Source of the DNA: Psammoneis japonica | Taxonomy: Eukaryota | DNA: 64,000 bases | Reading direction: 5' to 3' | NCBI GenBank assembly: GCA_008632985.1 | Contig: QPGO01000012.1 | Coordinates: forward strand, 558,001 to 622,000 | Shown: positions 2,911 through 62,198 of the stretch, one piece after another | How the letters are laid out: each line of letters opens with the position of its first letter | Position numbering within the stretch: the first letter of the stretch is position 1 | Notes under the pieces: generated by a model | The model's database searches: none | Seen by the model: only the letters and a program-made list of their open reading frames with translations | What the model was told of the DNA's origin: nothing | Program-made: the position numbers and the translations under genes

Positions 2911-5900
2911 AGAAGAGTGTGAGGAGGACGGTGACATTGTCATGGCGTTGATGCAAATGCCGTCGTTTTGAATTCAAGCAGAGAGAGGGAATCAAGGACA
3001 TCGAGTGTGACAGACCGCCCAAATGTGTGGGAAAACAAAGCAGGCTGTGCACAACACTGCCTTGCCAGTGATCCTGTTTGATGCTTTGGTTGTCCAAGGT
3101 CTGGCGCACCATGCTGCTGTTCTCTTTGAAGTCAACTTCGCGTGATTGTGGGAGGAGGTCGCTGCTGAAAGCTTCTAGAGAAAGCTTTGGCGGAGAACCC
3201 ATGCCAGCTGAAGACTTAGCGTCAGTTCACCCCCATGTCTTGCCAACTGCTGCAAAAATGCTTTCACAGTTAAACGTGAAAAATGAGACAAAACAACATG
3301 CCAGCCTCCACGATTCCAAAGCATTTTGATGGTTCCAGAGCAGGCACTTCTCCAATGCTTCGGCTGCTTCAAGTGTGCATGGATTGTCAGGAGAAATTGA
3401 CCAGCACTCCTCCAGGTTGTCCACACCAGGAAGAGCAGTAACAAAGACAGTAGAACCATCAATGTCTTCTGTGAGGAGAGTCACCCGTCTGTTCTGAGGG
3501 TGGCAAATCTGAACATCAGCTCCACTTGTGTCCAGCGGAGTGTTTCGGTGCTTGTGCAGAGCCGCATTGTTGCCCAACCTCGTCAACAGGGCTGGAGCAA
3601 TTTCATGTGTGTTCAGCACCAACTCCAATGGGATTCTGCGGCAGGGACATCCTTCAAACATGCAAATCGAACACCCGTTGGCAGGCCGTAAAGGCTTGAT
3701 TGCAAATGTCTGCATCGTCTTTCGGTGCTTGCCTCTCCCCCATCCAGTTCCACCAAAGTTCAGGTGATGTTGCAGATCTTTTGATGTTTGGTTGCCTGTT
3801 TTTTAATTGTTCTGGTCTCCATTGTCCAATCACATTGCATCATTTCCTTTGTCACTTTTTTTGTCCTTGTGCAATTCAGAACCCCAAATCCAAACTGGGC
3901 AGACAACAATCCACATTTGTTTTAACAATTTTTATGGTTCCCGTCCTGTTTTTTTGTTCTGTCTGTGCGCATAGAAACTAAACCCATCCATCCAAATGGC
4001 GCACCTCTCTCATCCACCCAAAACACAATGAGGACATCCTTTTTGAAAGTCACCAAAAAAGGCATCTCCCATCATTCCAAAGCATGCACCTTGTTTGGGC
4101 ATCATCTTCCATTTCAGCCACACTGACTGAGAAAAATTGGTGAGGCCCAAAAGTTTTTCTGGTGGGCTGTGCATCTGTCCACTGTCCACCATGGAGGAGG
4201 CCAGGGCCAACAATGATGGCACCACCAGCAACACTTTGGAGGCCATTCTCTTGTGGTCCTTTGCATGACTTCATCGACTGCAATGTTGCCGATGTTCCTT
4301 CAGGAATCCATCGGGGATCAGCGCTGGTGTCATGCTCTTGTTTCAACATGGATCTCAATGATGCAGCTGAAATTCCATGGTTGAATGACAAGGATTTCCT
4401 GACAAAGCAGGAGTGTCTTGCAAAGCCTTCTCATCCATGGTGGATCTCATTCCTGATGACCCCATTTTTCGGAACCACAACCCAAGAGGAGGCAGACCAG
4501 AACAGGAAATGGAGAGCCAGCTCATGGTCACATTGAAGGCTTTTGGCAGTGAAGGAAGTGAATCTGGTGCACATGCCCTCCACAATGAATTTGGAGCCAG
4601 AAGGGGAACCAGTTTGCATTCTTGCATGAAACATGTTGTGCATGCTTTGATGGGTCACCGCAATGAACATGTGCACTGGCCAGATGAGGCTGAGAGAAGA
4701 ATGACATCAAAGAGAGTGTTCAAAGAATTCGGTTTTCAAAATTGCATTGGCATCACAGATGGCACATGTTTGTTTCCATTGGCACTTAGACCACAAACTG
4801 TTGATGCACCTGACTGCAAAGGCCGGAAGTTTCTGCATTTGATTGGCTCCATTGCAGTGTGTGATGACAACCGATGCATCAAATTCTGCGAGGCTGGCTG
4901 GCCAGGCTGCGCACATGACAATTGAATCGTGTGGAATGCAAAAATGTGGAACAGCCCATTGGAGTGCTTTTCCAAACACCAACACATGCTGGATGACAGT
5001 GTGTTTGAAAACCACTGGTTTGTGGTGTCTGCTTTCACTCTTCACCATCCGGAGAGACCGTCAATGAGAACCACGCCTTGTTCAACAAAGCAATGTCATT
5101 GCTCAGAGTTTGTTCCAAACATTGTGCTGGCCTCTTAAAAGGGTGTCTCCCATGGCTGCAATTAATTTGTAAGACAGCAACATAAGACGAATGGATGTTA
5201 AAAGAAATCCTGTGTTTTTTGGGTGCATGTGTGATCCTGCACAACTTTCTTCTGTGGTTTGGTGATCGGGTGACTGACAATGCTTGGATCCAAAGTGAAG
5301 GTGACATTTCAGACATCAACAACTGCAACAGGAACAAGAAACAAGTGTGAAACCACCTTGAGAACAGAACACATGATGTCCCAAAGACTGGCCGAACTCT
5401 CGTCTTCATCGCTCATGACCGTTGACAGGTCCGGAATTTTCTTTGGCACATTTCCTTTTTTGTGCACCCTTTTTACTCCAGCTCCAAATGTGTGTCTGGC
5501 AGAGACTTTCAAAATTCCATCTCTTCCTTCTTTCCTGCCCAGCGGTCCTTTGTTGCCTGTGCCTCTGTGCCATCTGTTCCATCTTCATGTTGTGTCGGCT
5601 GGTTTCTTGCACGGCTTCCTTTCTGTTTGTGGCTTGGCTTTCCCAAGAAGGCAACCCGCTTTGGAACTTGGTTGTCCATGCACAGAGGACCACCTGGAGC
5701 TCATCATGTTTGTGTGCAGGCATGCTGACTGCCAAGGTCCCAGCATCACGCAAGCGCCCTGAGAGCTTCCGAGCCCAATGGATGGAGAAGCAAATTGAGC
5801 TTCTCCAAGCTCAGAGCATTCGGAGCTTCCTTCCGAGGAAAACCTTGGAGGACACAGATGGCAAAGGCACTTGCCAAAACTGTCCTGAGTGAGACGTCTT

Positions 5901-6150
5901 GGATGTCAGCACACGAGTTGTTGTCGTCGTGGTGCTTGGGGGTCTGCGAAATGCACAAACCATCGTGAAAAAAAACCGGGTTTAGAGAGTCGGGCAGGGC
6001 TTGGGCAAACAAAGAGATGTCATCTTCTGCAGGAGGTGTTGGGAATTCAAACTCTGGCAGGAAGGGCTGCACAATCTTGACAATGTTCGGGACATGGAAG
6101 GCACATTGGGCCAGCTGCTGACGGCTCTGAGACCAGCCCCCATCCCAGTT
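2911..6150. other. TpA- and CpG-depleted, TG/CA-rich block A (degenerate TE and gene relics)
   Basis: TA dinucleotides drop abruptly after ~2910 and return at 6151. Confidence 0.85.
4250..5400 (+). mobile_element. Degenerate PIF/Harbinger-type (DDE_Tnp_4) transposase
   Basis: NCIGITDGT, D(C)KGRK, GWPGCAHDN, LDDSVF and a downstream GLLKG..PWL-like motif, broken by stops and frameshifts. Confidence 0.75.
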
Positions 6151-6156
6151 GTAAAA

Positions 6157-6227
6157 TACGCGTCATAACCTCTTCAACTTCAACATGGGTTTGATTAGTC
6201 CGACCAACACAATGGCTTTCCCATTCA
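6157..6227 (+). repeat. ~70-bp direct repeat, copy 2 (copy 1 at 2721-2790)
   Basis: Direct sequence comparison. Confidence 0.9.
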
Positions 6228-8545: not shown

Positions 8546-9630
8546 CCCGCCGCCGCCATGTGAGATGCGAGAGCACGGGGTTGCCGTCTAGCAGTAGCTA
8601 GCAATCACTCTACCTGCTCTCTAAGAGAGAGTTAGTAGAGCCTACCGCATCGCCATTGTACCGGTGCCATAGAGGTTTTGGGTGCTGTCGGTGTTCAGTG
8701 TGCCGACCGAGTGCTGTTCACGAGACCCAGTCGACAAACAAAGGAAAAGAAAAAGAATGTAAACTCACAGAGTGTCTGCCGTTGTGCACTGGTCAAAATT
8801 CTTGCCCTGAAGTGCATGATGCTCATCGCTCATCGCAAACGCAGCATGTGCAACTGGTTTTCAACGGGCAGTCGACGTGTGTCAGATTGAGAAACTTCAA
8901 ATCGCACATTCCCGCCGGAACTGGCCCAACCATGTTCGTCGAGCTTAAGTCCAAGAGTTGGAGCTGGCTCAGCTGCAAGAGCTCCGTTAGAATGGTGCCA
9001 GTCATTTTTGCATTGGAGACATCAAAAACTTCCAGCTCACTTGGCTGGCCAATGCCTGTTGGAGTTGCACCCGTGAAATCGTTCAAGCTCACATCCCAGA
9101 CCTCCACATCCACAACACTGCTGATCTCGGTGAACAAAGTGCCTGTCAAAGAATTGTTGCGCACGGAAAATGCTTCCAGCTCCGTAAATGCAGGGGATGC
9201 GTTGAATTGATTCACAAGCCCAGACACCATGTTGTTGTTGAGTCGAAAGTTTCTTGCAGCAGAGGCGAGACCAAAGCTTTGAGGGAAGGTTCCACCAAAG
9301 GCGTCATCACTAAAGTCCAAATCGACTTTCAATGCCCACACCAGCACCCAAATAAAGTGACAGATGAGAACACATGCAACACGCCAAACAAAGCGCAAGA
9401 CACAAACTTGCGCAACTTTCGACCAACATCTGTGCCTAGAAAATCAATTGGACCAGAACCAATGCTGTCAAGAAGTGCACCCAGATCATCAAGTTCCGGA
9501 ATTTGGCCTGTCAGTGTGTTCCAGCTTACATCGACAGTCTCTGCGCAATTTGGCAGTTGACAATTCATTCAACCAGGCGCCATGAAGAAAGGGCAAATTG
9601 TTGCACACAATGCTCATCAACAAATCAACT

Positions 9631-9906
9631 TGACAGGATTTGAACAGGATTTGGGTGCGTGCGAAATGTCGCGCACTGTTTAGCCCACCGCGCACAGTTT
9701 TGTGTGCTTTGGTTCCGCGCGTTCGCGCGTGATGTAGTTTGCTTTCGAGCCACAAGGCTCACAAGAATGACAACAGCAGCCCGATTTTACCGACTTGCAC
9801 GTCTTTCGGCTCCTGCAACGGTCTCTGAGCGGAGACTCATCTGCCATTTAGACAGCAGCAAGGAGTTGTTGTTTGAATTCTTGCCATTTGCCTTCATTTT
9901 CTGTCA
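9631..9906 (+). repeat. 5' LTR
   Basis: About 94% identical (hand count ~16 differences) to 16474-16749. Confidence 0.95.
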
Positions 9907-10854
9907 GATTGACAGTCTTGCTCATTGTCAACCCATTGAGCAACCGCCATCATCGTCGTTGATTTACCGACGACGCCATCTCAATTCTGCGTGGACCTCC
10001 GCATGTGTTCTACGTACATCGGCAAGTCTGCGCGCATTCAATGCCAGGGCATCGGCAGGAAGTTAACGTCACCGTCAAGTCTCCTTACCGCTGGATGTCT
10101 GGATTGATTGTGCTGCCTTTGATCGCTGAAGACATGCATTCAACGGTCACATCCAAGTCTGTCCTTGATCCTCATCCCTTGAAACACCCATTCATCGGTT
10201 AACGGTCAAGAACCCCACACATTCAAGGATCTTCGTTGCTGAAGACATGTGTGCACACACACATCTTCACGGCCAAGAACTTGTGCCCACTCTTCGGACT
10301 GCGGTTTTGCTGCCACTCTACAAGCACACCGAGTCCATTGCACCTGATCTACCCCGGACTGCTGGTGCTCTGCAGATCTGCCAGGTCCACGAGGACAACT
10401 GTGAGAGCAAGCAGCCGTGATTGCAGCCTGCGTTGGGGCGAGGGTGCTTTCCCACATTTGTTCGTTCGTCCACAGCGCCTGACGCCTGCGTCAACTGGCC
10501 AGCCTGATCGGGAAATCCAACCAACACAAAACAAGAACGGTTCGGGGGTCTTGTCCACCTCTGGTCAGCTCACCTGCAGGGGTTTACAACCCGCCACTCC
10601 GCTCGTAAGCAACCCAAAGTGCCACTGGCTGTGGGTGCGGATGTGCCGGCACAACTCTACGGACCGGATGGGAAGTTTAGCACTCAACAACGAACGGGGT
10701 GGCAAAGCCCGGCGACTTCTGATTTTAAGGCAGTTCAAGATTTCAAGTCAAGTCCACTTCAAGTCAAGTCTGTTCTCACCCAAGTTTCAAGTCTACCTTC
10801 ACTGCCTTCGCTTCCCAACAAGAATTGCTTGTCCTGACACCACTTTTGTCTACC

Positions 10855-13800
10855 ATGGTTCTCACTCGTCAGCAACAAACCGATGGTTTCGAGCACGTTG
10901 TTGGAGCCGTGCTTGCCCAAGGTGCTGGGAGCCCTCTTCGTTTGGCTTTGACCCAAGACGGCACGGACTCGCATCAAGAACTGTTCACGTTCATGCCATC
11001 CCAAATCGACTCGCTTGAGTGCGACAACGGCACCAATGTGATCCCTTTGCCCCGCGGTTACAAGAACATGTTAGCAGCTCTAACCAGTCTGTGCATTGTC
11101 AAAGCACACGAAGGTCTTGACGTTGCCAATGACTCCTCGTTGTTCACGCATGACGAGTTCCTTGCCTGCCGCCTCAGCCCCGACTGCATGTCTTCTGTGT
11201 CCGTCGGCAGCTCACCCCTCGCACCTCCGCATGTCACCAACCCGACCAAGGCACGCGACCCGGTACGAGACTTCAAGCGAGGCATCAAGCGTGACCCCAC
11301 CGCTTTCACGGCTCTCAAATCTGACAAGCAGTGGCACACTTGGCACACCTCACTTGTGGCACAAGCCCATGCCCAAGACGTCGAGTGCACTCTAGACTCG
11401 TCGTACAAACCGACCAGCCCCGAAGACAAACTGCTCTTTGCTGAACAGCAAAAGCACATGTTCGCCATCTTCGAACACATTCTTCTCACTGACAAGGGCA
11501 AGGCTCTCATTCGCGAAAATGTTGGGTCTTCTGACGCTCAGACCGTCTGCCGCGCCTTGTCTGAGCATGCGCTCGCCTCCACCCGCGCATCTGTCGAGTC
11601 CTCCACCTTGCTCACGCACCTCACCACCGCACGTCTTGGTGATGGCACTTGGAAAGGTCCGACCCACGGGTTCATCCTTCATTGGCAAGATCAGTTGCGC
11701 AAGTGCGAGGCACTCATCCCGGCCAGTGACCACTTCTCTGAAGGACAGAAGCCCGTCATGCTCGAGAATGCCGCACACCCTGTCGAGGAACTCCGTGCTG
11801 TCAAGAACCAAGCTGATCAGCATCGTACGCAGAGTGGCAAGAGCCTCACATACGATCAACACTGTGGCTTGCTCCTCTCCGCGGCGGCTCAATGTGACAG
11901 TGCGTTTCAACCCAAGACGACACCTTGAGCTCCCCGACGTGCCACATGCGCACACGATGTCTGCTCCGAGGAACCGTCCGACAATGTGTTCTACGACATT
12001 GACAGTGACATTGACGTCCTTCAGGCCAATGCTGCCTGCACCCGTGGTCCCAGCCTCACCGGTGACCAATGGAAACGTCTCCCTCCCGACCACCAACGGA
12101 TTTGGGATTCGTTGCCCCATTCCTCCAAGGCGATCATCCTTGAGCATTCTCGTCCGCCTCCCCGCAACCCGCGAGCCAGCAACTGCCATGAGTCTGTCAC
12201 GGCCAACCTTCACGACCAATGCCTTGGGAGTGGCGGTGATGTCAACTTGTCCAACACGACTCCTGCTGACTCTGGTGACCCCGCTCCAAATGTGGGTGCC
12301 ACTTCGGATGATCCCATCCTGGCGCACCTCACCAAGCACAAGCCACTGCCACCCGGTGATCTGCAACGTCTGTTGTCTCCTGACCAAGCCCCCAACGCCA
12401 GTCGACCGGGGCCATCCACCGCTCCCTCTGCTCCGCCAGCTCCTGCCGATGACGTGGAACTTGATGGCCGCACTTGCCGCCACGTCAACAACCACAATGT
12501 CATTTGCTCTGCCTCTGCTCATCGCTCCACACGCACTGGTGCTCCAGTCGATCGTGGGGCCAACGGCGGCATTGCTGGCGACGACGTCCGCGTCATTGCA
12601 CGCACCTCTCGCCAAGTCGACGTTCAGGGCATTGATGACCACCAATTGGTGGACATCCCCATTGTCACCGCTGGTGCCGTCATTGAGACTCAGCGTGTTC
12701 CCGTCATTGCCATCCTCCATCAGCACGCATGCACGGGCAAGGGCAAGACCATTCATTCCTGCGGCCAGCTCGAATGGCACAAACAGGATGTCAACGATCG
12801 CTCTGTCAAGGTGCCCAATGGCTTGCAATGTGTTGCCACCCCTGATGGCTGTGTCATCCCCATTGACATCAAGGGCGGCCTGCCTTGTGTTGCTGTGCAA
12901 CCTCACACTGACGCCGAATGGGACACCCTGCCCCATGTCATCCTCACTGGTGATGACACATGGGATCCTTCCGTCCTTGATCACTCTGTCACTGACGACG
13001 ACCAGTGGCACGACGCGATCTCTGACCTGCAGGACGATCCCACTGCCAACCTGTTTGACGAATGCGGCAACTACCGTCACCGTGTCGTTGTCAACAAGGC
13101 CATCATGTCCGCCTCCTTGTCTGCTGATCACGCGTCCGTCCTTGATGACCACCTCATTCCGAATGACGACGTGTTCTGCGAGTGTCATCTACACGCGATT
13201 GACCCCAAGGACGTCGACGTCCCGCCCCCGGAGCGCACTGTGCAACCCAAGGACCCCCCCTTCGAGTCTCTTTGGCCTTGCTTTGGCTTCCCACCTGCCG
13301 ATGTGGTCCATCGCACTTTTGACTGCACCACGCAGCACGCCCGCATGCCCGCCGGTGCACACCTTAGGAAGGCCTGCAAATCACCCAACCCCGCCCTTAA
13401 TGTGCACCGCCGCAACGAGCCCATCGCCACTGACACAGTTTGTGCCGACACCCCGGCCGTCGACTCTGGTTGCACCAGCGCCCAACTGTTTGTTGGCACC
13501 GAGTCTGCCGTCACTGACGTCTACGGCACCAAGACGGACAAGGAGTTTGTCAACACACTCGAGGATCAGATCCGTGAGCGTGGTGCCCCATCCAAACTCA
13601 TAAAGCGACCGTGCTCAAGTTGAGATCAGCAACAAGGTGCTCGGGATTCTACGAGCCCTCTTCATCTCCAGCTGGCAAAGTGAGCCTCACCAGCAACACC
13701 AAAACTTTGCCGAGCGTCGACACCAGACCGTGAAGCGCATGGCGAACACTGTCATGGACCGTTTCGGTTCGCCTGCCCACACATGGCTGCTGGCGCTCAT

Positions 13801-16526
13801 GTGCGTGTGCTTCACACTCAACCACACAGCGTCCCCATGTCTCCACTGGCGCATGCCCCTCGAGACTCTCACTGGCTCCACCCCGGACATCAGCCCATTG
13901 CTTCGCTTTCACTGGTGGGAACCCGTGCACTTCCACCTTGATGACTCCGATTGGCCATCCGAATCCCGTGAGTTGCGTGGACGCTTTGTTGGCATTGCTG
14001 AGCACGTCGGCCACCAGATGACCTTCAAGATTCTCTCTGACGAGACTCAGAAGATCCTCCACCGGTCCAACGTACGCTCCGCCACCCACCGATCCTGCCG
14101 TTCGAAACCTGCGTCTTGATCCTCCTGATGGGGAGCCACCTGAACCCATCATCAAATCTCGCCATGACGACAACCCTGTCGATTCTCCTGATGGGGAGAT
14201 CAGGACACCCAAGATGCCAGTTTTCGATCCGCAAGACATCATCGGACGCACCTTCCTCATGCAGCCACAAGAGGATGGACAATGCCACAGAGCTCGCATC
14301 GTCAAGGCCGTCGAAGACCATGAATGGAAAGTGAACGGCAATCCCGAGCTCACTGAGTTCGTCTGCTCTGTCAACAACGACGAATGCGAGGAAGTCCTTG
14401 CCTGCAACGACATCATGAATCACATTGAGCAAGAAGACGAAGACACTGCTGTTTGGAAATTTCGATGAATCGTGTCACACGAAGGACCTCTGAAGCCTCA
14501 TGACCCAACCTGGAAAGGCTCAAGCTACAACATCATGCTTGAATGGGAAAGTGGGGAGATCACGTCCGAGCCTCTTGCCATCATCGCCAAGGACGACCCC
14601 GTCACCTGCGCCATCTATGCACGAGAGAACGGACTTCTCGACACTGATGGCTGGAAGCGGTTCCGCACCATCGCGAGGCGCCAGAAGAAGCCATTTCGCA
14701 TGGCCAACCAAGCCAAGCTTTGCTCCTTCCGCACTGCACCTTGCTGCAAGTGCGGATGCGAAGTTCCCCCGAACTGCAAACACGCCATGTCACTGGACGA
14801 ACGCAACGGCAACCGCAAATGGGGAGACACAACTAACCTTGAGATGGACCAACTCGAGGAATGCCAAGTCTTCCATGACTGCGGGCCCTTCGAGTCTTCC
14901 ACTCCTCCTGCGGGACACAAGAAGATCCGAGTGCACCCAGTGTACGACGTGAAACACGACGGTCGCCACAAGGCACAACTCGTGGCCGATGGGCACCTCA
15001 CGGACGTGCCTGTCGACAGTGTCTGCTCCGGAGCAGTCTCCCTCCGTGGCCTTCGGCTGATGATTTTCCTGGCCGAACTCAACGAGTTAGAGACATGGGC
15101 CACCGACATTGGCAATGCCTGCCTTGAAGCCACCACCAAGGAGAAGCTCTACATTGCAGCCGGACCCGAATTTGGCAAACTCGAAGGACACATTCTTGTC
15201 ATCCACAAGGCCCTGCATGGACTGCACAGCTCTGGTCTCCGCTGGCACGAGCGCTTCGCCGACTGCCCACGAGCTGAAGGATTCTTCCCCTGCTGCACCG
15301 AACCCGACATTTGGATGCGCAGGAATGGCGGCCACTGTGAATGCATTGCCGTTCATGTGGATGACCTCGCCATTGCTGTGAAGGACCCTCAATCTTTCGT
15401 CGATGCTCTCACGGAAAAGCACAAGTTCAAGCTCAAGGGTGCGGGACCCATTGAGTTCCATCTGGGTTGCGACTTTTCGCGGGATCCCGACGGAACCTTG
15501 TGCATGTCTCCGCGCAAGTACATCGAGCGCATGGTTGACAGCTGCGCCCGACTGTTTGGGGAGAAACCTGCCACCAACGCCCTGTCACCTCTGGAGAAGG
15601 GTGACCACCCCGAACTGGACACTGCCGAACTGCTGGGGCCCGATGGCATTCACAAGTTCCAGTCTCTTGTTGGTTCACTCCAGTGGGCAGTGTCCCTTGG
15701 TCGAATTGACATCACCACGGCCATCATGTCACTCTCTAGCTTCCGAGCTGCGCCCCATCAAGGCCACTTGGACCGTGCCAAACGTGTCTGTGGTTGCCTC
15801 TCCAAGATGCGACACGGTGCTCTCCGCGTTCGTACGGAAGAGCCCGACTGTTCGGATCTCCCTGCTCCGGCCTGTGAATGGATGCATTCCGTGTACGGCG
15901 AAGCAGAAGAGATGATCCCGAAGGATGCTCCACCGCCCCTTGGCAAGTTCGTCACTGCCACCCACTACGTCGATGCAAACTTGTGCCATTGCATGCTCAC
16001 CGGACGCTCTGTCATGGGAATGCTCCACTTCCTCAACAAATTCCCGGCTGATTGGTTCTCTGAGAAGCAAGCCACCGTGGAGACTGCGACCTGCGGGTCT
16101 GAATTTGTTGCCGCAAGGACTTGTGTCGAACAGGTTGTCGACCTGCGCATCACCCTGCGCTGCCTTGGCGTCCCGATCCGCAATGTCAGTCACATGTTCG
16201 GTGACAACAAGTCGGTTGTAGACAGTGCCACCATCCCGCACTCCAAGTTACACAAGCGACACACCGCACTGTCGTTCCACCGTGTGCGTGAGGCGATTGC
16301 CTCTGGTCACCTTGAGTTCCACTTCATCGAAGGCTCCCGCAACCCTGCTGACATTCTCAGCAAGCATTGGGGTTGCTCCCAAATCTGGGACCTTCTCCGC
16401 CCCCTCATGTTCTGGAACTTCATTCCATCCGAAGTCGAATCTGTTTCTGTGACTCCTCAAGCAAACTGGGGAGTGACAGGATTTGAACAGGATTTGGGTG
16501 TGCGCGAAATGTCGCGTGCTGTTTAG
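10855..16526 (+). pseudogene. Inactivated gag-pol polyprotein
   Basis: DFKRGIKRD (gag), VDRGANG (protease), EPHQQHQNFAER (integrase), HVDD (RT, from YVDD), NPADILSK (RNaseH). In-frame TGA at 11926 and 14466 (probably from CGA); frameshifts near 13600 and 14085. Confidence 0.9.
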
Positions 16527-16749
16527 CCCACCGTGCACAGTTTTGTGTGCTTTAGTTCCGCGCGTTCGCACGCAATGTAGTTTGCTTTCGAGCCACAAGG
16601 CTCACAAGAATAACAACAGCAGCCCGATTGCACTGACTTGCACGTCTTTCGGCTCCTGCAACGGTCTCTGAGCGGAGACTCATCTGCCATTTAGACAGCA
16701 GCAAGGAGTTGTTGTTTGAATTCTTGCCATTTGCCTTCAATTTCCATCA
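16474..16749 (+). repeat. 3' LTR preceded by a short purine tract (ggggag)
   Basis: Matches the 5' LTR and is followed by TSD CAACT. Confidence 0.95.
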
Positions 16750-18474: not shown

Positions 18475-18595
18475 TGCAACACACAGCCACCAACAAGAGC
18501 CAATGTATCATGGCGATGTGTTGCAGCCTTTAAATGTCACAAAGGGTGTGACAAAAACAACCTTTTGTCTGCATGCATGCTGCACCATCCTTCTT
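18475..18595 (+). repeat. ~115-bp dispersed repeat; two inverted copies at 53253-53362 and 53590-53700
   Basis: Shared core gcagccttta(a/g)atgtcacaaagggtgtgacaaaa..accttttgtctgcatgcatgctgca with a GTCAC-N7-GTGAC hairpin. Confidence 0.8.
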
Positions 18596-27715: not shown

Positions 27716-27716
27716 A

Positions 27717-39890: not shown

Positions 39891-39940
39891 AGTCTAATTT
39901 GCCGACGTTCCCCTTTTTCTGTTCCGACCGACTGACTGAC

Positions 39941-48500: not shown

Positions 48501-51500
48501 AGTGTTGGCAGACAAGTTAACATCGCCATCACTTCCTGGACAGAGGTCATGAAGGTTGACAGCCTCTGACTCATGGTGGTTGCCAGAACAGGTGGTGCAC
48601 AAGCCAAGGACAATGGCCTTGCCTCAGAGATCTGGCAAAATGCAATGCCGCTGTTCTTTGGTGAGGCTGGAGCTGTGAGTTTGAGAGGCACAAGCCTGAA
48701 TGATGTCAAAGTCACTGCCAATGTTGAAGAATGCATCATTGTCAGGGTCATCAGGAGCCAGGTCATGGGTGCAGATGGCACAGTGTGGAGTGCGGGAAGC
48801 CATCTTGGGCATGAAAGCACTGTCACACTGTGCTGCTGCAGAAAGCAGGAGCCTGCAACATTGCTCGCAGGATGGGCCAGTGTCATTCTGCATGCAAACT
48901 GTTTGGCTTGGTTCTTGATGGAACAAAGTTCTTCAACAGGATGAATGGCCTTCTCCAGCATGACACGTTTCTGGCCTGCAGAGAAGCAGTCTGCAGCCAG
49001 GATCAGGGCTTTGCACTTGCAGAGTTGGTCTTGCCAGCAATGTGTGAAGACCTGGGTGGAGCCCTTCCAGGTGCCATCACCAAGACAAGCGGTGGCAAGG
49101 AATGTGAGAAGGGCAATTGAGCAAATTGATGCTTCCCCTTTTGAAGCTGCTGTTGCCACCAAAGTGATGCTGTGCAACTTGTTTGGTGCTGCACCCTCTG
49201 CTGTTGTCAAAGAAGATCCCTTTGGCCTGCATCCTCCACTTCCAAGAGCTCTGCTGCCATGTGAACCCCTTGCAACACATGACAATGTTTTGCAACTCAG
49301 GAGCACCAGCTTTTGCCAGAGTCCATGGTTTTTTGCTCTGTTTTCAATGCTGGATTTTGTTTGAAGAAGTTTCAACCTGACTTTTCCCACAAACTAAAGA
49401 AAGGAGACCAGGACAAAGAGATCTGGAGGGGCAGATTTGCACCTGACACCTGACCAAATGGCTGGTTGGTGCTTGGATTTTCACTGTTGGCTTCAAAGCA
49501 ATGAGCAATCATGCTTGTTGGAAACTGGTGTGCATGCTCGCTGGTGTCAAGGCAGTCTCACCCAAGTGCTTGACTCCATTTTGAGGTGCTGCTCAGAATG
49601 CGGTGCAGCTTCGGTCTTGCACTTGCATGATCCATCTGCACATTTTACAAGATCACAGATGTGTTGGTGGTTTGTGATGGTGACCACCCTCCCTCTTGTC
49701 TTGCAGATGACATTGATTGGTTGGAAGTTGATGCTGCCATTGATTGTGGCAGCCAGCTCAACAAGATTCCCAAATCCAACAAGGGTGTGAAGCACCAGAA
49801 CAAAAACAATTGCTGTGACATTGGTTGGTGTGGCAGTCAATGTCAAAATGCCAATCATCCAGATGATGCCCATTTGCTTTCCCCTGCACTCTCTGAGCAA
49901 CTTGGTTGTGCTCCCAACACCAAGCCAAAACAGCTCAAAAGCCACATGCATCCTGGCTGCAACTGCGCCTTGGATGAAAGACAGTTGCAGTCCATTTGTT
50001 GACCCCAACAACCCAGATTGCACTGAGGAGTTTGGAAATGCACTGCATCCTGAGTGCAACACCAAGAATGGCAGGTGCTCCAGCCACAGTTTGTTTTGAA
50101 TCATCTTGCAGTTGCCATGGGGGGGACTTTCACAATGGTGTGATGAGCACAATCTGTGGCATCTCCAAGATTCTGCCAGAGCCAAGCAGTGGCCAGGTTG
50201 TGTGCTGCAGCATCAATTGCCAGAATCATGTGGCCACAGATGGGCTGCACAATCACACATTTCAAAACCCTTTGCTTGATGGCATGAGCTTGTTTCCAGC
50301 TGTGACAATTTTGATGAGTCTTGGCATCACCTGGGAAACCATTTGTGTGATGGGGACATGGTGGAGTGGATTCCAGGATTTTCTGTTGGCTTGTGGTTGC
50401 AAAATTTTCATTGCCCAGAGCTCCTTTCTGCAAAGTGCAAATTCAGTTGCCACACCCAGCAAACAACTTGAAATTGCTTTCTCAAAAAGGTGGAGCCATT
50501 GCTGTCAAGGCAGTGCACATGAAGCCATCAGCGTGGACATGTGCCATCACTCTGCTGACTTCTGTGTGCAACTGGCAGTCTGAATCCATGGCCAGCTGTT
50601 GTTGCTGCAACAACATCTTGCACAGGTGCAGCCATTGTTTCCAAATCATGTGCTTTGCACCACCAAGACAAGGAATTGCAATGGCTGTTCTTCAAGCTGT
50701 TTCTGCTGGCTTGATTTTTTTTTGCTGTCTTTCTAAAAAGAGTTTGTGTTGTTGTTTTTTTGGTGCACCCCACAGCCTGGCACAAGGCATCATGCAGTCT
50801 CAGCATGCACTTCTTTTTTGTGGACAACAATTGTCAACAATGGCCACCTCTTTTCCCATGTGATGTTGCTCTGTTGTGCTCTCATGAGAGAGTCCCTGTC
50901 AATGTGGGTCCTTCTCTGGATTTGAAGAATGCAAAAGAGAACACTCCACCAATGTGGTCGACACAGCCATTTCTGCTGCATCAAACAAGGAGTTGACAAG
51001 CATCCCTTTCAATGAACCAATGGAGGAGTTGGACATTTGACATGTTTCCTCCATCACTCTTGCTCAAGTGAGACATGTTGAAAGAGACAACTGATGTGCT
51101 TCAACCTCCAGCAAGCAATGCTCAATGCAACACCTGCAAAGAGAATGTCAACTCTGGTGTTCTTTGTGACATTCCTCAACCAGCTGTTCCCAACAAGCCT
51201 TGCAAGTCAGAGTCTTCAAGTGTTGAACTCATTGACAAAATGGTGGCCATTTTTGACAAGAAGCGATGAAAGTCAAAAACATGGTTGACTTTGGCAACTG
51301 TGCAAGTGTTCTTGTTTGTCACATTTCATTTTGCATGGCTGATCATTTGATGACAGAATCTTGTGTTCACATTTTACTGCTTTGCTCTAAAAAAGGTTGA
51401 CTCCACTTGATGACAAGGAGGAGTCTTCATTTGCAGTTTGCTGTTTTGCTCCAAAAAAGGTTGACTCCAAGATGAGATGGTGTGTTCAGCCAAAATCATG

Positions 51501-54500
51501 CAAGGGGACTGTCTGGCAGGGGATGTGGCAAGCAAGACAGGTCATCTCCTGCTCAATGCTTTGTCATTGTTGAACATTTGGCAAAGCAGGGCATTCACAA
51601 CATGGCTGTTTTAATCAACTGGGACAAGTTCCCAGCAATTTGTGCCATTGACTCAGTCTCCACAGAGAAGACACATGGTTGGAAGCTGAGTCTTTGTGCA
51701 CCCCCTGATTGTGAGTGGAGATGTGCTGCACTGTTTCACCAAGACCTGGTGAAGTTGGGGTCTGCACACTCCACAAAGAACGTCTCAAACCCCATTTGTG
51801 TCATTTGATTGCTCCAAACTTTCTGGTGGTTTTTGCAGGGCCAATGAAGCTTTTGCCAGCAGCCCATCTTCTGCATGTCAAAACTCCATCAAGTGAATGG
51901 CCACATGCTCTTGTGACTGGCCTCTCATGGGGTGACCATTGTGTTTGACTCTCATGATGAAGCCACTTTGTTGGATGCTTCTGCTCAGTTGCAGTTTGAC
52001 AAGGAGGCAGAAAAGGATTTTGTTGGAGTCCATCAAAAGTTTGTGGGAAAGCAGCAACCACAGAAACTCAAGGTTGGTGCTGGGTGTTTGTCAGGCAATG
52101 GCCATTTTGAGAACACAATTTGAGCATGGTTGTCAGCTTTGTTAAAACCCACAGAAATTGCAAGTTGTGAAAGCATTGAACAACCAATGCTTGTGCTGCA
52201 ACCAACTGACAGGTTTGATTTTCTTCATCCAAGGTGTTTGTGGCACCCATGTGAACAACATGATGCCAAGATTGAGGCAATGGCTGCAGCAAGATGAAAT
52301 GTTGATCATGCCTCCTCTCTGCTTCTCACACATGTCAGGCAAGATGACCACAATGTTGTTCCTCTTGTGGGAGCAATGTGCACATTGTTTGGTCTTGCCT
52401 TTTAATGTGTCCACTGGTGGACCCCAAATGGCCACCATTGTGCCCACATCTTTGGGTGCTGTGTGGGGACAATTTCTTCACCTGGTGGGTTGAATGCAAA
52501 AAAGCTTGAAATCTCTCACACTGGGAACTCCAGCTTCACAGCACAATCTGAGCACTCACTCAGTGCTTGCTGCCTCCCTCTTGGTGCAGCGTGTGGCACT
52601 CCATTCCACCAAATGGAGCCACAGTTTCAGGTGCACTCCCGCACTTCTTGTTTCACTCATTCTTTTTCTTCAACAGCATGCTCGCATGTGACTTGCTTTC
52701 TTGGAATTCGTTGACATGGTCAAAGAATCTCTGGCTTGGTGTGAAAGTGTGTGGTCCAATGTTGCTTCCTCTGAACACTGCAACTTGTCTGCCAGTCTTC
52801 TCATCCAGCAGTTGGAACTCATCTGCCACTCAGTTGCCCCATTTTGTGCAGCACTTGCTCTTCACATTCTTTGGATGGAGCATGTTTGCTGTCACATTCT
52901 CTGTGTTTTGAACTTCACATCCTTCCATCCTGGCATGATGCAGTCTTTGTCCAGGGTGTCCAGCACTCCTGCACTTGCAGAGACAGATCAGCCTTGGTTT
53001 TCAATTGCCGCACATTGTGCGCCACTGCCACAGTCTGGTTTGCTGCCATGCTGAGGGCGGAGCTGTCATCAAGGATGATCTTGTCCACCTCGATGGCTTT
53101 GTTGGCTTGGCTTGTGCTCGTCTCTGGTCTTTCATTTGCCAGTTGCAACCCATGCCATGCAGTGCTTCTGCTTTGGCTGGAACAGGTTGTTTGGTTGGAT
53201 CTGGCAGTGTTGGTGCTCATTTTGTCACTGTCCACCATCAAGTGGTGGTCATCTGCAGCATGCATGCAGACAAAAGGTCATTTTGTCACACCCTTTGTGA
53301 CATCTAAAGGCTGCAACACGTCACCGTGATGCATTGACTCTCATCAGTGGCTGCACATTGCACTCCTCCCCATGTGTCACGCGTCCATGCGCCTCTTTGC
53401 TGACGTGCACTGACACTGCACGGTTTTGGCGGAACAGTGTGGGCATGTGCGAAGGAACGTGCAGCTGCACAGAGTTTTTTGCGCATTCGACAGTGATCAA
53501 CATTGCTGCAGACAACTCCCACTCAGGGTTTCGAGCCCCTGGCCTCCTGCCTGATGGTTGCGATGAACCACTCCGCTGTGAATTCACAGTGCAGCATGCA
53601 TGCAGACAAAAGGTTATTTTGTCACGCCCTTTGTGACATCTAAAGGCTGTGACACGTCGCCGTGATGCATTGACTCTTGTCAGTGGCTGCACATTGCACA
53701 TCATCCCCAACTTGTGATTGCACATTGCTCTGTCCCTCAATGTCTGGCTTGGACCAATCATTTTCACAATCACCAACATCTTGTCAATGCTTTCAGTCTG
53801 GGGACTTGTGATTTAGTTTGCTGCAACAGCAACATGCTGCAGTGTCACTCTGGCTGCTCTTCTGGGCATGGCTCTGGTCCTTCATGTTGTTGAGCTGTCT
53901 GCCGCTGTTTTCATCATTGCCGCCACACCACTCTTGTTGTCTCTCTGCTCATTGTTCTTCCTCTTGTGACAGTTGTGGGGTCATTGTCTTTTGGGCTTCA
54001 CCCAAACTGCAGTCTCGCACAAAGACATTCTCTTCAAGCTCATTGCTGCTGTTCTCCATGAACAGGCATGCTGCCCACATTTCAAATGCTGGCTTCTTTG
54101 GCTCCTTTTGAAATCCAGAGTTTCCATCTTGGCACTCCTTGACATTGGACACAAATCCATCCAGTGTTCTGTCTCCCAGCCTTTCTTTTGTGGCATCTTG
54201 CTGGTTCTTGAATCTTGACAGACAATCATTCAGTGTCTCATTCTCCCTTTCACCTCACATCCAGAATGTTCTTCAAGGCCTCAGCAAGTGCATGGAATGA
54301 ATGTTGATCTCTTGTTGAGTTGAATGCAAGGGGTTGAATCAGTTTCAATGACATGTGAACAGAGGATCATCCCTGTCAATGCTTCAGAAACTGGGATGAG
54401 CTTGCACTCTCTGGTTTGTTTGCTTGGTGCAGGAGCAGTCATCTTTGCTTTTTGATGGCAGTTGCTTGGCTCCACTTTGCACTGGCACTCCAGTTCTTTG

Positions 54501-56610
54501 TTCTTTGTTTTCTCACTGCTTCTGCAGCAGCTTGACTTGGCATGTTGTGTCTGCATTGGCTGGCACTTTCATTGTGGACACAGTCAAGGTGGGTCTCTCA
54601 GAGGCAAAATCCTTGCTTTTCACATCTTCCAGGGATCTTCCCAAATGTGTGCCTTGTTCATGCTCCTTCTGTGTGCAATGGGTGATCTTCTCCTTGAGAT
54701 GTCTTCACATGCAGCATTGTGAGTGTCTTGCTGTTCAGCAACCAAGGATGGATCTTCATCTCAGGATGAAAGTGCTTCTCAGTTGGTCTTCTTCTTCAGG
54801 TTAGAGGACCTGCAACTCTTGTCACAGCCACAACCACAACCTTGGCCTCAGTCGTTTGTTCTGCCACCTCCTCTGCAACTCATTTTGCAGGTGCTCAGCA
54901 TTTCATTTAACTGTGTGCAGGTTGGTGTCTGCAAGCACCAAACACAGTGCCAGCAACTCTTTGGAGTGAATGTTGAACTGGCAAGAAGTCAATGTTGCCA
55001 AAAGAGAATCCTGTTGGGCTTCCTGTGTGGCTCAATGCACTTGCCTTGGTAAACTGCAATGGCTGTGGGTTGCCAAAGTTGTCACTGCAAACTGTGAACT
55101 TGCATGATGACAGGCACCTGCTGACACCAAATGTCAAATTGCGTGTGAGCCAAATGATTTGTTGTTCCAAAGAGTGAAATAAAATGAGAGGCAAGAGATT
55201 GATGATGACAAAATCTTGCTTGTAAAGAGTCACCCTGAACAAGCCACATCAGGAGTCAAAGTTTTGTTTTGAGCTGGCTGAAGATGACAGACAGACTCTG
55301 AAACATTGTTTTTGGATGATCACTGCAACTGTGAAAGTTGGAAATGAGCAGCTTGCAAGCTGGGAAAGAACATGACAGCACACCACAATCAGATGGCTGG
55401 TTTGGGGCGTGGGGTGGAGCAGCTCACTGTGTTGACCATTTGGATTGGAGCCTCTGCTGGCTGCTGGCATGTCGTTGACATCCCAATGTTGGACATGCAT
55501 GCCAGACACAACCTGCTGACTCCAGTCTTTCAGTGCAAGCAATGACCAAAAAAGGGTTTGCAGGTGGCAGGACTCAAAACCCACATACAAGCAAAAGTGT
55601 GATTCAAAGTGTCAGCCACTCTGACAGAGTCATCTCTTCTGGGAAATGTGTTCGTTGTGCATTGCTGGACTGTGTTGCACATGGATCCTGCATTTTTTGA
55701 AAAATGTTTCTGCCTTGCTAAGTTTTGGCTGGCAAAGTCACAAGGAGGTTGGGCCCAGCTCCTGACAGAAGAAAAGAAAGCATGACTGTGCTGTCTCAAC
55801 ATGCTCACAAGCAAACAACTCAAAGAGCCGCAAGGACTCGCCTTTCTGTGGATGAAGCATCACAGCCTTGCTGCATTGCTGCCACATGTGGAGTGGTCCA
55901 GCATTGCTTTTAAAGAGGATTTGATCATTTTTGAGCTGCTCAGGTGAGGTGCAGATCCACGAATGTCCGCCATTCTTCTTGCCTGCTTCAAAAGTCCATC
56001 TGCAGAGTCCATGCCAACCAACAACCAGCCAGCTCCTTCTTTGAAGGTCTCATCAATGCTGGAGGAGTGGGGTTGTTGGCCATTGTCAGATTGTCAAGAG
56101 CCATCATTGCCATCTTTGCTTGGAAATGTGGAACCTTTTCAGCCAAGTTGACACACCAATGCCACTGGACCAGGTTGCAAGTGGACCTCTGCAGCATGGT
56201 GGTTGGATCCATCATCCTGATTTATCCAGCCAGTGGTGTTGCTTTGCAGGTGGGGACAATTCAGAGCAGAAATTCATCATGCTCACAAGAGTGTCCTAGT
56301 CAAGTGGCATCATCTTGCGGTTGTGAAGAAGCTGGGCATTGTCTGCTGAAGGAAGAACTCTCATTTCGTCAAGTGTCAACAACAGTGTCTTGATGCTGAG
56401 CATGCAACTCTCGCAATGGTGCATCTGGGATTCTGGAGCACAACGTTGCCGATCTGTGAATTCTTCTGTGTCATGTTTCCTGAAAACTGAACCAGAAAGG
56501 ATTGGATGCGAGCTCGTTCGCAAAGAGTCAAGCACGCTCGTGCCTGCAGTGTTTGGCAGGATTGTTCCCGCCGAAAGTTGTGACAGACCGGTCAGAGAAA
56601 AGAAGCTGCA
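42575..56610. other. TpA/CpG-depleted block D (old copia plus unclassified relics)
   Basis: TA and CG are nearly absent over 14 kb. Confidence 0.85.
44866..49380 (-). mobile_element. Older, deleted and heavily mutated copy of the same or a closely related copia family; 3' LTR 44866-45114, 5' LTR not found
   Basis: Collinear fragments: CLGDGTWKG, KKACKSPNPALNVH, QQHQNFAE, EPLAIVAKDD, VCADDLAF, LEKGDHPKL; LTR starts tgacaggatttgaacaag. Confidence 0.9.
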
Positions 56611-56818
56611 TGCTACAATTTTCTTTTCAATTCAATCCCCAGTTTGGAGTGGAATATAATTCCTCTACGGTCTGTTGGATCTCATAACGAATTTATTTCA
56701 TGTTTACTGTTTGACTTCAGTGTGAGGGCGAGTAGTCTAGTCTAGTCTAGCCACTGGAGGGAGCGGTTGCGAACGTGCTCCCTGTCACCTGTTTCTGAAA
56801 TGTCAAAATCAATAATAC

Positions 56819-60082: not shown

Positions 60083-60949
60083 TACAGAAAATAAAAAAAG
60101 ATTTACATGTCATTGTTGGTTTGTTTTCTTTTTTGTTTGTACATTTTCCTTTTGGTCGTCAAGCCACTTGCACGCTTCAAAAAAGACAGACCAATCCAGG
60201 GCACCCTGTTGTCGTTGCACAAACAAGATCGGTAAAGCAGTAGATAGTCAAGTACTCTTGTCTACATTATTGAAGACAGTGAGCGGTGCGTTCAAATTGA
60301 ACTCTACCCCTCGTCCCTGCTCTGCGACGAGCGAAATGAAGATGCCGTCCACATAACCGTGCGCCTGAAACCATTGGCGACAAATTTACTACACCAAAAA
60401 ACGAAAGGAAGCGCAATCAAAACAACACTTTTTGGCAAAAAGATCCCATCCAAAAGAAAGTGAAATTCACAAAGTCCCACTTTTGTTGCACCCTTTTGTG
60501 GACCCACCTTTCTCTGTCGGAACATCCGAGAAGAACAGCATCATTTGGTGGGGCACCAAAAAGATCTTTGTTGGATGAGAAACGAAAAACACAATCACAC
60601 TGGTGCGCAAAAGTTGTCCATGAAATGAGACTGGATTCTGACTGTGAGTGCACTCTTGTTCCTGCATCACATGGAGAAGAGTCATGGAGCAAAACACGGT
60701 GAACTTCTGCAGCAGTCTGCATGCAAGATGAAACCCAACTAGCGCATTGTCCACACAGCAATGAGTTGCTGTGATTCCGCTCCGCACACATGCCAGTCTC
60801 CATTCAAGACACTGTCCAGACCTCTTTTAAAAACTTTTTAGCGGCTCATGACATTGAACATGGCATTCCTGCAGATCCTTTGTTGCGGTCTTAGATCAGC
60901 TTAGATTCTTTCTCTCCATGGTTTGCCTGGCCAATGAGCTCATTTGACA

Positions 60950-61770
60950 AAGGATCATTTCGAAATGCATGTGAGCTTTGGAAAGGATGCCTCAAGATGA
61001 GCATTTCCTTTGGCTTGGAGAAGCGCTCAACTCGGTCCCTTTCTAGAAGGTGCGCCCTCACCACAGCCACTGTGGAACCTGTCAACCACATCCATGCCTT
61101 CAAAATTACTTTGCCAAAAGGGCCAAAGCCCTGTTTGTCTCTAGAAAGCCATTGCCTTGCTCTCTTGTGTTGTTGAAAATCTGTGGCGTGCGAGTGTTGG
61201 GGCCTGCAGTGGCAAAGATGACAGTGCCACGAGCATTGCCAACTTTGACCGGATCATCTTTAATGCTAGAAGTGCACCACTTGGACTGCACAGAGGATTG
61301 CCATCAATGCCAAACTGAGAGACAAAGAGCCAGGCAAAACCCAGAAAAGCCTCTGCATCCATCCCAGAACCCTTCTTTTGTCAACTCCTGCAAGGACAAA
61401 AACAGAGTGGCTTGATGCATTCTACCACATTTTTGTTGTGTGCCTCAAAGTGCTGAATGCCAAGCGGGGCCCAATCTAGATGGAGCTGGATCTTGATGGT
61501 TCCCGCGCACTCTTCGAGACAAACCATCCAAATGGTTGCCCACCTTGAACTTGTGACACTTCCTTTTCCCTCGTCCGCAATGGCAGGCTTGACAGTTGAA
61601 ACCACTGCAGCCGTGAATGCAGTCTCCACTGCTTGCTTTTCGGCAGGACATGGTGCTCAGTTCAAATGATGATGTCCGAGAAGTGAACCATGCCGCGTGC
61701 AGAAAGCCGCGTGCTCCACACATGGAGGCAACAAGAATGGCAAGAGAGAACAGATTGCAGAACATCATTG
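60950..61770 (-). pseudogene. Cyclophilin-type PPIase pseudogene with signal peptide, inside TpA-depleted block E (~60400-61780)
   Basis: WAPLG, FVSQFGI, IKDDPVKVGNARGTVIFATAGPNTRT.QIF and EGMDVVDRFHSGCGEGAPS.KGP; stops and frameshifts. Confidence 0.85.
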
Positions 61771-62198
61771 CAGAACTTTGTAAGGCAGTTGTTTAGCGTG
61801 TTGGCGCAGCAGCATCAGAAGAGTCCAATATTTCTCTTGATAGAGACGTTTTCAAGTTTGAAGTTTGGCGATGAAACATCATGATGAATGATGTTGCCGC
61901 AGATGATGCCGAGAAAGATACGCGCGATCTTTGTGACGCGAGTCCGATTAGTCAAAAACTTGCGGGAAAAGCGATGGCGCCATGCATGGCGCGCCGTCGC
62001 CGTACAGTAGTCGCGACGCCCGTGATGACAATAGCTCTACCAGGTGTGATAGCTAGCTAGTACTGTGATACCCACATAGAAACGCTATTGTGCATGAAAG
62101 CAAAATGGTTAAGAGCGTCATTTTAGCGAAGAGAGACTAAATTCGATGGTAGACACAGACTTGCTATGTATTGGGAATTCTACAGTACAACGTTCGCC

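Follow-up and report, generated by a model that had tools for sequence, protein, structure and literature searches.

To our knowledge, the hypermutation defences known on chromosomal DNA until 2026 were all cytosine-directed, namely repeat-induced point mutation (RIP) and AID/APOBEC acting on cDNA. The main text of a 2026 bioRxiv preprint (Mettrop et al, 10.64898/2026.01.13.699255) reports that, in mutation-accumulation lines of the alga Bigelowiella natans, of 302 nuclear point mutations, 231 were located in two inserts, one from a nucleocytoplasmic large DNA virus (NCLDV) and one from a virophage; with a single exception these insert mutations were A>G or T>C, each of the A>G and T>C changes lying at TpA. 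The rate (~6e-7 per site per generation vs 3.5e-10 elsewhere, ~1000-fold) was raised in some lines only, and an ADAT2-like candidate enzyme is proposed in the same text. Here we describe a signature of the B. natans type in a new lineage, together with new features that constrain its origin; it has been described before in one other alga only. The DNA in question is a 64,000-nucleotide stretch of the diatom Psammoneis japonica (assembly GCA_008632985.1, contig QPGO01000012.1, positions 558,001–622,000 of the forward strand; hereafter the window, in whose coordinates all positions are given), in which gene-free domains almost devoid of TpA alternate with ordinary genes, and in which a Copia-type long terminal repeat (LTR) retrotransposon, element A, allows the direction of change to be read. 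A model that saw only the letters had drawn attention to these domains (the original prediction) and knew of no described process with this signature, a statement that the B. natans preprint has since rendered outdated.

Dinucleotides were profiled in 1-kb windows and TA positions were segmented with a two-state hidden Markov model (HMM), the scope of both being the 64-kb window. The HMM delimits domain 1 (2909–6151; TA observed/expected, o/e, 0.09; CG o/e 0.37), domain 2a (8671–23587, containing a broken gene, element A and old DNA), domain 2b (24183–27848; TA 0.05, CG 0.28), domain 3 (35184–39889; TA 0.07, CG 0.30) and domain 4 (42586–56613; TA 0.05, CG 0.14, containing a second Copia element, B). 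Together these span 40,560 bp and hold 196 TA, as against 834 TA in the remaining 23,440 bp (4.8 vs 35.8 per kb). In 1-kb windows, TA o/e runs at 0.00–0.2 within the blocks and 0.4–0.8 in the genes between them; across the depleted features as a whole it is 0.04–0.16, with TG and CA o/e raised to 1.6–2.1 and CG o/e reduced to 0.07–0.37 in most blocks, the exception being the young element A at 0.85. The flanking genes are compositionally normal (TA 0.42–0.64, CG 0.92–0.99), as had been predicted. A fifth, milder domain (60400–61780; TA 0.13, CG 0.42) was not called by the HMM; its composition, beside DNA with TA o/e 0.43–0.47 and CG o/e 0.91–1.02, nevertheless upholds the prediction of a real block at this position. 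The predicted edges of the first four TA-poor, TG/CA-rich blocks (2911–6150, 8680–27620, 35190–39890 and 42575–56610) fall within a few bases of those recovered here, save for the right end of the second (27848 rather than 27620); that block had been drawn as continuous from 8680 to 27620, and although its depletion stands, its continuity does not, being broken by a 595-bp island of normal DNA (23588–24182).

The sharp bounding of the domains, also predicted, is borne out by the confinement of the depletion to gene-free DNA and by the abruptness of its borders: outside, TA occurs every 5–40 bp right up to the edge, and the next TA inside lies 89–267 bp from the border at the four edges that have one within the 400 bp examined, the borders being sharp to tens of bp up to ~270 bp. 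Within the window we thus observe both a DNA-level event confined to discrete regions with normal DNA around them and a long-term footprint in which TpA depletion goes together with raised CpA+TpG across clustered windows. The losses and gains balance. Relative to flanking DNA, depleted DNA has lost 31.0 TA and 29.1 CG per kb and gained 35.1 TG and 28.3 CA per kb (60.1 lost vs 63.4 gained overall; 71.7 vs 73.7 in the old blocks only), with near equal totals of TG and CA (4424:4353). About half of the TG/CA excess is attributable to CpG decay in the same domains.

Element A (9631–16749, + strand, 7,119 bp) is bounded by 276-bp LTRs (9631–9906 and 16474–16749; TG..CA ends, 94.8% identical) and by a 5-bp target-site duplication, CAACT (9626–9630 and 16750–16754). 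Its pol open frame (14469–16523, +) encodes an RVT_2 domain (E 3.9e-21) and the C-terminal part of pol. We aligned its reverse transcriptase (RT) frame with 60 homologues (60–67% identical), which gave 399 columns conserved in at least 80% of them. Element A keeps 352 of these 399, and the losses are concentrated on tyrosine: only 5 of 21 conserved Tyr are retained (12 have become Cys, 2 His, 1 Trp and 1 Phe), a loss of 16/21 compared with 31/378 for other residues (Fisher p = 1.4e-12). The catalytic YVDD motif now reads HVDD, and the frame as a whole contains 1.0% Tyr against a median of 4.3% (minimum 2.3%) and 4.2% Cys against 1.1% in 120 homologues. A single TA>TG/CA step suffices for 22 of the 47 changes and a single CG>TG/CA step for 8, the other 17 fitting neither; Leu>Pro (2, both CCA) and Val>Ala (1, GCA) also occur. 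Element B (about 44866–49112, − strand; TA 0.06, CG 0.14), a degenerate, older copy of the same family that is 65–82% identical to A, repeats this pattern over 305 columns (118 changes; Tyr kept at 2 of 18, with 8 now Cys and 3 His; Leu>Pro 2, Val>Ala 3). These substitutions had been predicted for every recognisable relic; they are present in both Copia elements, but the generality is an overstatement: Pfam recognises a single relic (RVT_2) inside the blocks.

The same alignment yields a spectrum for adenine. At the second codon position, A>G changes in element A affect 12 of 21 A preceded by T, compared with 0/24 after C, 3/35 after A and 1/48 after G (p = 1.7e-8); at 12/21 against 4/107, TpA is favoured ~15-fold, which is the outcome, among those proposed for this comparison in the original prediction, that leaves the TpA-specific reading standing. 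Error-prone repair synthesis in heterochromatin by a Pol eta-type polymerase (WA>WG), another candidate put forward there, fits poorly: although both the A>G direction and the 5′ T resemble the WA hotspot, such a polymerase should treat TA and AA alike as hotspots and leave some transversions, whereas AA is changed at only 3 of 35 positions, AG density is the same in depleted and normal DNA (59.2 vs 58.6 per kb), and the changes are nearly all transitions. We regard it as very unlikely. A nucleotide-level trinucleotide spectrum against 11 outgroups (4 of 15 chosen loci were skipped for internal stops) was also attempted; it contained too few three-base sites (TA 2/10), showed an apparent T>C at TG (10/31) that arose from CpG decay in the outgroups, and was replaced by the codon spectrum.

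Relatives of element A do not share its composition. A scan of metagenome contigs recovered 80 related Copia loci with TA o/e of 0.33–1.02, none below 0.3, and the closest of these (L001, 73% amino acid identity to A) has TA 0.84 and CG 1.12. In a codon alignment, the 88 TA sites of L001 correspond in element A to 10 TA, 22 TG and 21 CA, an outcome symmetric between strands; at the same sites, two control loci give TA/TG/CA counts of 29/8/14 (L002) and 31/11/10 (L003). The ordinary TA content of the relatives argues that TA loss is not native to the element family, and this comparison, the Tyr losses and the mass balance together bear out the predicted A>G at TpA on either strand as an acquired change; the further check that had been proposed, whether related intact elements already lack TpA, likewise returned no refutation. 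Native composition or selection (elements that always avoided TA, for instance to escape a nuclease or for RNA stability) might draw on the mild under-representation of TA throughout the window, its genes included (o/e 0.42–0.64), but would leave unexplained the loss of 16 of 21 conserved Tyr including the catalytic one, the broken frames of element B and of the interrupted gene described below, and the 80 relatives themselves; we consider it scarcely credible. One locus among the 80, L028 (2,561 bases, TA 0.33), carries a partial signature, with Tyr>Cys at 4 and Tyr>His at 6 of its 30 Tyr (10/30, vs 163/2,971 in the other 79 loci), and hints that the process may also occur in other environmental genomes.

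How much TA survives, by comparison with normal DNA, varies strongly with the flanking bases; the proportion is lowest in ATAT (0.012), ATAC/GTAT (0.013) and ATAG/CTAT (0.042), intermediate in GTAC (0.066), ATAA (0.105), CTAC (0.117), GTAA (0.18) and CTAG (0.20), and highest in CTAA (0.47) and TTAA (0.58). A hand-fitted, additive two-target model, with one A per strand whose rate is set by the base 3′ of it (T > C > G > A), predicts survival in the six mixed contexts from that in the four palindromic ones with an error of up to ~1.4-fold (~2-fold for ATAC). The direction of change follows suit: among sites that read TA in half or more of the outgroups, those with a 5′ pyrimidine became TG 13 times and CA 2 times, and those with a 5′ purine became TG 3 times and CA 5 times (p = 0.026). 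The preference is 5′-T-A-Y > T-A-G > T-A-A. This rule accounts for the excess of Cys over His among former Tyr codons (TAY) with no need for a strand bias.

An LTR retrotransposon inserts with two identical LTRs, and differences between them date from after integration. We compared the LTR pair of element A and, with it, five further young duplicate pairs from the window. Among them, 42 of 44 single-base transitions lie in pyrimidine–purine (YR) dinucleotides, which hold 52% of the bases (p = 3e-10); the 42 are made up of 17 CG<>TG/CA differences, 9 TA<>TG/CA differences and 8 TG<>CA double differences, the same pairs showing 2 transitions outside YR and 8 transversions. The LTR pair itself contributes 3 differences at TA sites and 2 TG<>CA doubles; 3 of 6 still-recognisable TA sites differ, against 2 non-YR changes in 271 bp, which gives a rough idea of the relative rate. 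A TG<>CA double requires that a single ancestral TA or CG was hit twice independently; between elements A and B such doubles number 89, compared with 3 TA<>CG doubles. Outside an LTR, a tandem duplication of a 212-bp unit (18755–19178, +; copies 96.7% identical) differs at 7 positions, made up of 2 TG<>CA doubles (4 positions), 1 TG<>CG and 2 transversions, and thus diverged in situ. Some of the process, at the least, works in place on DNA already integrated into the chromosome.

This timing bears directly on the possibility that retrotransposon RNA or cDNA was edited A>I at UA by an ADAR/ADAT-like enzyme and then inserted, the signature being inherited by the chromosomal copy. Such an origin would suit the sense-strand excess of Tyr>Cys over Tyr>His (12:2 in A, 8:3 in B) and the stronger depletion of the interior of element A relative to its LTRs. 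The Tyr bias is, however, accounted for by the 3′-neighbour rule, the outcome is strand-symmetric both against L001 (22 TG vs 21 CA) and overall (4424:4353), TA sites differ between the two LTRs of a single insertion, the tandem duplication diverges in the same manner, and a gene relic that is no retroelement is equally depleted. Editing before integration is in our judgment improbable to much the same degree as polymerase error.

That gene relic also helps to separate TA loss from CG loss. A leucine-rich repeat (LRR) receptor-like gene relic on the − strand has its N-terminal part at 16750–17853 (a transmembrane segment, an LRRNT-like CNWDGVSC motif and LRRs, with zero Tyr in the 368 amino acids of the frame) and continues across element A at 8700–9625 with frameshifts and stops (a weak LRR_1 match lies in the open reading frame, ORF, at 8826–9443); it is a host-type gene interrupted by insertion of element A. 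A protein search with the relic matched 6 plant LRR kinases over 14–26% of the query, confirming its LRR nature, and offered no close homologues for polarisation. Element A, at TA 0.16 and CG 0.85, is the youngest hit target; the LRR relic into which it inserted stands at TA 0.10–0.13 and CG 0.53–0.66 (16750–18000, TA 0.10 and CG 0.53; 8671–9625, TA 0.13 and CG 0.66), and the old blocks at TA 0.04–0.09 and CG 0.07–0.37 (the old part of domain 2a, 18001–23587, has TA 0.07 and CG 0.16). This gradient shows TA loss running to saturation ahead of CG decay. Taken by itself, element A (TA survival ~0.16/0.84 when set against its closest relative, CG survival ~0.85) would put the TA process, as a rough estimate, at ~10 times the speed of CpG decay per site.

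Decay of methylated CpG clearly operates in the same domains (CG>TG/CA, CG o/e down to 0.07), but it cannot remove TA, and element A had already reached TA 0.16 with CG still at 0.85; since the two losses are separable between elements, CpG decay alone cannot account for the loss of TA. The converse is seen in four of the metagenome relatives (L045, L004, L005, L014), where CG has fallen to 0.10–0.24 and TA remains at 0.47–0.57, so that CpG decay does not bring TA loss along with it. The original prediction held that neither RIP nor CpG decay explains the blocks; neither suffices alone, with the amendment that CpG decay acts alongside and supplies about half of the TG/CA excess. Diatom transposons are 5-methylcytosine (5mC)-methylated and silenced, and RID-like DNMT4 genes, to which no function is assigned, occur in many diatoms; the available text of the same paper makes no mention of hypermutation (PMC9998398).

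The letters themselves appear to be reliable. A modified base misread by the sequencer, with TA still present in the true DNA, gains some footing from the fact that the sole sequencing run containing the sequence (run X1) comes from the sample of the assembly's possible source, its platform being unrecorded. A misread modified palindrome would, however, be read as TG from one strand and as CA from its complement, whereas contigs from X1 agree with the window over kilobases (37525–39980, 2,456 nt with 3 other letters; 40291–44895, 4,605 nt with 2 other letters; word depth ~60); these contigs include block DNA, and depth is equal in blocks and genes. The two LTRs and the two Copia copies show different, fixed outcomes, and CG and TA losses are uncoupled between elements. 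We therefore hold such an artefact to be extremely unlikely. Run X1 contains 93% of sampled words. Window and X1 differ between TA and TG in a T-A-T context at 39449 (TA in the window) and 44817 (TG in the window), which may be segregating hypermutation alleles; 2 of 5 differences in the blocks are TA<>TG and 2 of ~10 in the genes also fall at TA (29144, 33000), numbers too small to support a claim of ongoing activity.

What the process targets is less simply stated than "repeats", the term used in the original prediction, and the evidence does not bear that term out. The Copia family is highly repeated (the LTR region of element B reaches a word depth above 16,000 vs ~60 elsewhere in X1, indicating an abundant family), but the LRR relic has been hit, much of domains 3 and 4 reaches only 1–2.6 times baseline depth at ≥90% identity in X1 and is to that extent near single-copy, and a repeated element has been spared. 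The latter resembles a miniature inverted-repeat transposable element (MITE; 39951–40319, 369 bp; 40-nt terminal inverted repeats, 93% complementary, with an AT-rich interior and TA o/e 1.26); its word depth in X1 is ~630 vs ~60, about 10 times baseline, and contigs of a further run, X2, break at its ends. It lies untouched 60 bp from the edge of domain 3, just upstream of a NOX-like gene. The trigger thus looks more like "silenced island" than "any repeat", with the proviso that old copies diverge fast under this process, so that the blocks may have been repetitive in the past.

We envisage two processes acting in the gene-free islands, which are made up of LTR retrotransposons, broken genes and unrecognisable old DNA. 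The first is a fast, strand-symmetric and TpA-specific A:T>G:C change (TA>TG or CA) that operates after integration and stops sharply at island edges; the second, an ordinary and slower decay of methylated CpG (CG>TG or CA). Of the first, the data above establish the direction, the TpA specificity, the strand symmetry, some action after integration, the confinement to domains and a loss of TA ahead of CG. Its chemistry is a proposal: enzymatic deamination would turn adenine into hypoxanthine, which reads as G, the agent being a TadA/ADAT2-like enzyme or another deaminase of nucleic acids that may be recruited to silenced, probably 5mC-marked chromatin and may serve genome defence. Adenine deamination is favoured by the combination of a pure transition with a strict 5′ T, which recalls the action of the TadA/ADAT family on U33-A34, a parallel also argued in the B. 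natans preprint. That TpA hypermutation at the level of DNA is real we hold with high confidence. The attribution of its chemistry to adenine deamination is tentative, falling a little short of an even call. For the statement as a whole, namely two processes in gene-free islands, the TpA process being of the B. natans kind and consisting of adenine deamination in the service of genome defence, we judge the balance to tip slightly in favour.

The principal competitor concerns the other base of the dinucleotide. The T of TpA might be modified (to 5-hydroxymethyluracil, 5hmU, or a J-like base, by a TET/JBP-type oxygenase) and then mispair with G or be mis-repaired, giving T>C at 5′-R-T-A. As TA is palindromic, all of the results fit such a change equally well, and 5hmU in dinoflagellates reportedly favours TpA. 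Against it, such a base is not known to occur in diatoms, and 5hmU opposite A is only weakly mutagenic; moreover, near-complete conversion with almost no transversions resembles direct miscoding more than errors of repair. We think a thymine-side chemistry unlikely.

The two-process explanation as a whole has several observations to contend with. Either TA or CG may have given rise to the TG<>CA doubles. TA o/e is 0.25–0.29 in the LTRs of element A, compared with 0.15 in its interior, a contrast by which part of the interior loss could pre-date insertion (for example, through successive copies) or reflect context. A spared, repeated MITE is awkward for a simple repeat-sensing trigger. Run X1, whose platform is unrecorded, derives from the sample that may also have yielded the assembly and is not independent of it. 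The T-A-Y preference is unlike that of ADAR (3′ G) and unlike the anticodon contexts of eukaryotic ADAT2/3, with the U-A-C of bacterial TadA matching in part. Finally, only one family (elements A and B) can be polarised, and the history of the other blocks rests on composition and mass balance.

The remaining content of the domains is sparsely recognisable. Pfam searches of stop-to-stop ORFs of at least 90 amino acids in or beside the blocks (137, then 92 ORFs) scored well only for the RVT_2 of element A, with integrase, gag and RNase H not recognised even in that element; a tblastn search with 36 long Copia homologues placed relics at 12862–16493 and 45230–47899 only; and no protein family was recognised by Pfam or tblastn in the other blocks, domain 1 included. 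Scans of the window for tRNAs and against Rfam gave no match. At the right end of domain 2b, an ORF of 318 amino acids (26779–27732, −; TA 0.08, CG 0.68) comprises two repeats that differ by Tyr/Cys and Cys/His, and resembles DUF7507 at a score below the cut-off; with an X1 depth ~10 times baseline it is multi-copy, and it looks like a further recently hit target that is not a transposon. The 595-bp island between domains 2a and 2b (TA o/e 0.60, CG o/e 0.92, GC 39%) contains a 54-bp tandem repeat (23622–23783); inverted ends, tRNA and Rfam matches were looked for in it and none was found, and either late insertion or protection of the sequence may account for it. Domain 3 begins with a 13-bp microsatellite-like array (35389–35901). 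A 70-bp direct repeat with normal TA (2721–2790 and 6157–6227, 93–94% identical) flanks domain 1, its left copy stopping 119 bp before the domain and its right copy beginning 6 bp past the edge; the pair may mark a target duplication, or else a small repeat at the site of an insertion.

Loss of TA has a further consequence for annotation. Stop trinucleotides are scarce in depleted relative to normal DNA (TAA 2.07 vs 8.06 per kb, TAG 1.28 vs 7.55 per kb), and overlapping ORFs of 560–735 amino acids with no family match lie in element A in several frames and on both strands (e.g., 11396–13600, +, and 11395–13188, −); the near absence of TAA and TAG keeps these overlapping frames open and makes such DNA prone to false gene calls.

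The genes between and beside the domains encode a GPR1/FUN34 acetate-transporter-like protein, a NOX-type ferric reductase with EF hands, a Branch-type glycosyltransferase, a DUF6824 protein and a fusion of a chromodomain with an RNA-dependent RNA polymerase (RdRP). The closest relative of the transporter-like protein is 79% identical, followed by those of the diatoms Seminavis robusta (68%) and Nitzschia inconspicua (60%), then Cyclostephanos and Mayamaea. On this ground the window is taken as nuclear DNA of a diatom-like stramenopile, distinct from B. natans. The chromodomain–RdRP open frame (62199–63998, −, running past the end of the window; Chromo E 1.5e-6, RdRP E 1.6e-27) adjoins domain 5 and could plausibly encode either a component of RNA interference or heterochromatin or a transposon-derived gene. 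Within a minus-strand ORF of 1,402 amino acids (weak C-terminal SpoU-methylase match), a contig of run X2 joins 29697 to 29931 and skips 29698–29930, which suggests a 233-nt intron and an RNA origin for X2. This run covers only the genic parts of 27001–47000 and leaves the blocks uncovered; as its kind is guessed, we draw no inference from it on expression.

Were this reading correct, several things would follow. A footprint at saturation in a diatom implies that the process is no curiosity of one species or of viral inserts, and widens its range of targets to LTR retrotransposons and neighbouring pseudogenes. The enzyme is constrained by strand symmetry, by the T-A-Y preference, by a speed exceeding that of CpG decay, by sharp borders and by the sparing of a short euchromatic MITE; the Copia relatives with CpG decay but no TA loss provide a comparative handle, through which presence of a deaminase may be correlated with the signature. 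TA-free DNA, having no TAA or TAG stops and no Tyr codons, gives rise to long spurious ORFs and hides transposons from profile searches. Base-editing work, too, would take an interest in a natural enzyme able to edit A within chromosomal DNA.

Comparison with described systems places the window closest to B. natans. Fungal RIP shares with it a dense, in-place transition hypermutation of mobile DNA, sharp compositional domains and dead frames; RIP, however, proceeds by C>T, mostly at CpA, and creates TpA, whereas here TpA is destroyed and CA/TG made, the opposite direction, and the RIP signature is accordingly not seen (TA at 4.8 vs 35.8 per kb, CA+TG up by 63 per kb). The animal ADAR and APOBEC systems likewise produce deaminase-type transition clusters on parasitic nucleic acids, but do so on RNA or pre-integration cDNA and with strand bias, and the preferred 3′ base of ADAR is G, the opposite of Y here. 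The corresponding expectations of LTRs identical at edited sites and of a biased strand are contradicted by an LTR pair that differs at TA sites and by symmetric outcomes. ADAR does share a preference for a 5′ U, as stated in the B. natans preprint (10.64898/2026.01.13.699255).

With the B. natans process, as far as the main text of that preprint describes it, the window shares A>G/T>C change at TpA on both strands, confinement to particular regions (silent and foreign-derived in B. natans) and, over the long term, clusters of 1-kb windows poor in TpA and rich in CpA+TpG; in B. natans, transposon-type Pfam domains are moreover enriched among TpA-depleted coding sequences. The two differ in lineage (a chlorarachniophyte, within Rhizaria, against a diatom), in targets (NCLDV and virophage inserts there; LTR retrotransposons, a broken LRR gene and other DNA here) and in degree (Rho 0.45 for the NCLDV insert against TA o/e of 0.04–0.16 here, near saturation). 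CpG decay in the same domains and the 3′-neighbour preference are features of the window that the main text of the preprint does not report, a term search of it returning no occurrence of "CpG", "flanking" or "diatom"; in the full-text literature, from which most subscription journals fall outside the search, we found no report of TpA hypermutation in diatoms. It is possible, though we put it forward with reserve, that diatoms and chlorarachniophytes have in common a TpA-directed, adenine-editing defence, an A-side counterpart of RIP that may be old or recurrent in SAR (stramenopiles, alveolates and Rhizaria), that would work on integrated, silenced DNA with 5′-T-A-Y specificity at roughly ten times the pace of methyl-CpG decay until entire transposon islands are TA-free, and whose enzyme would be a natural deaminase of chromosomal DNA.

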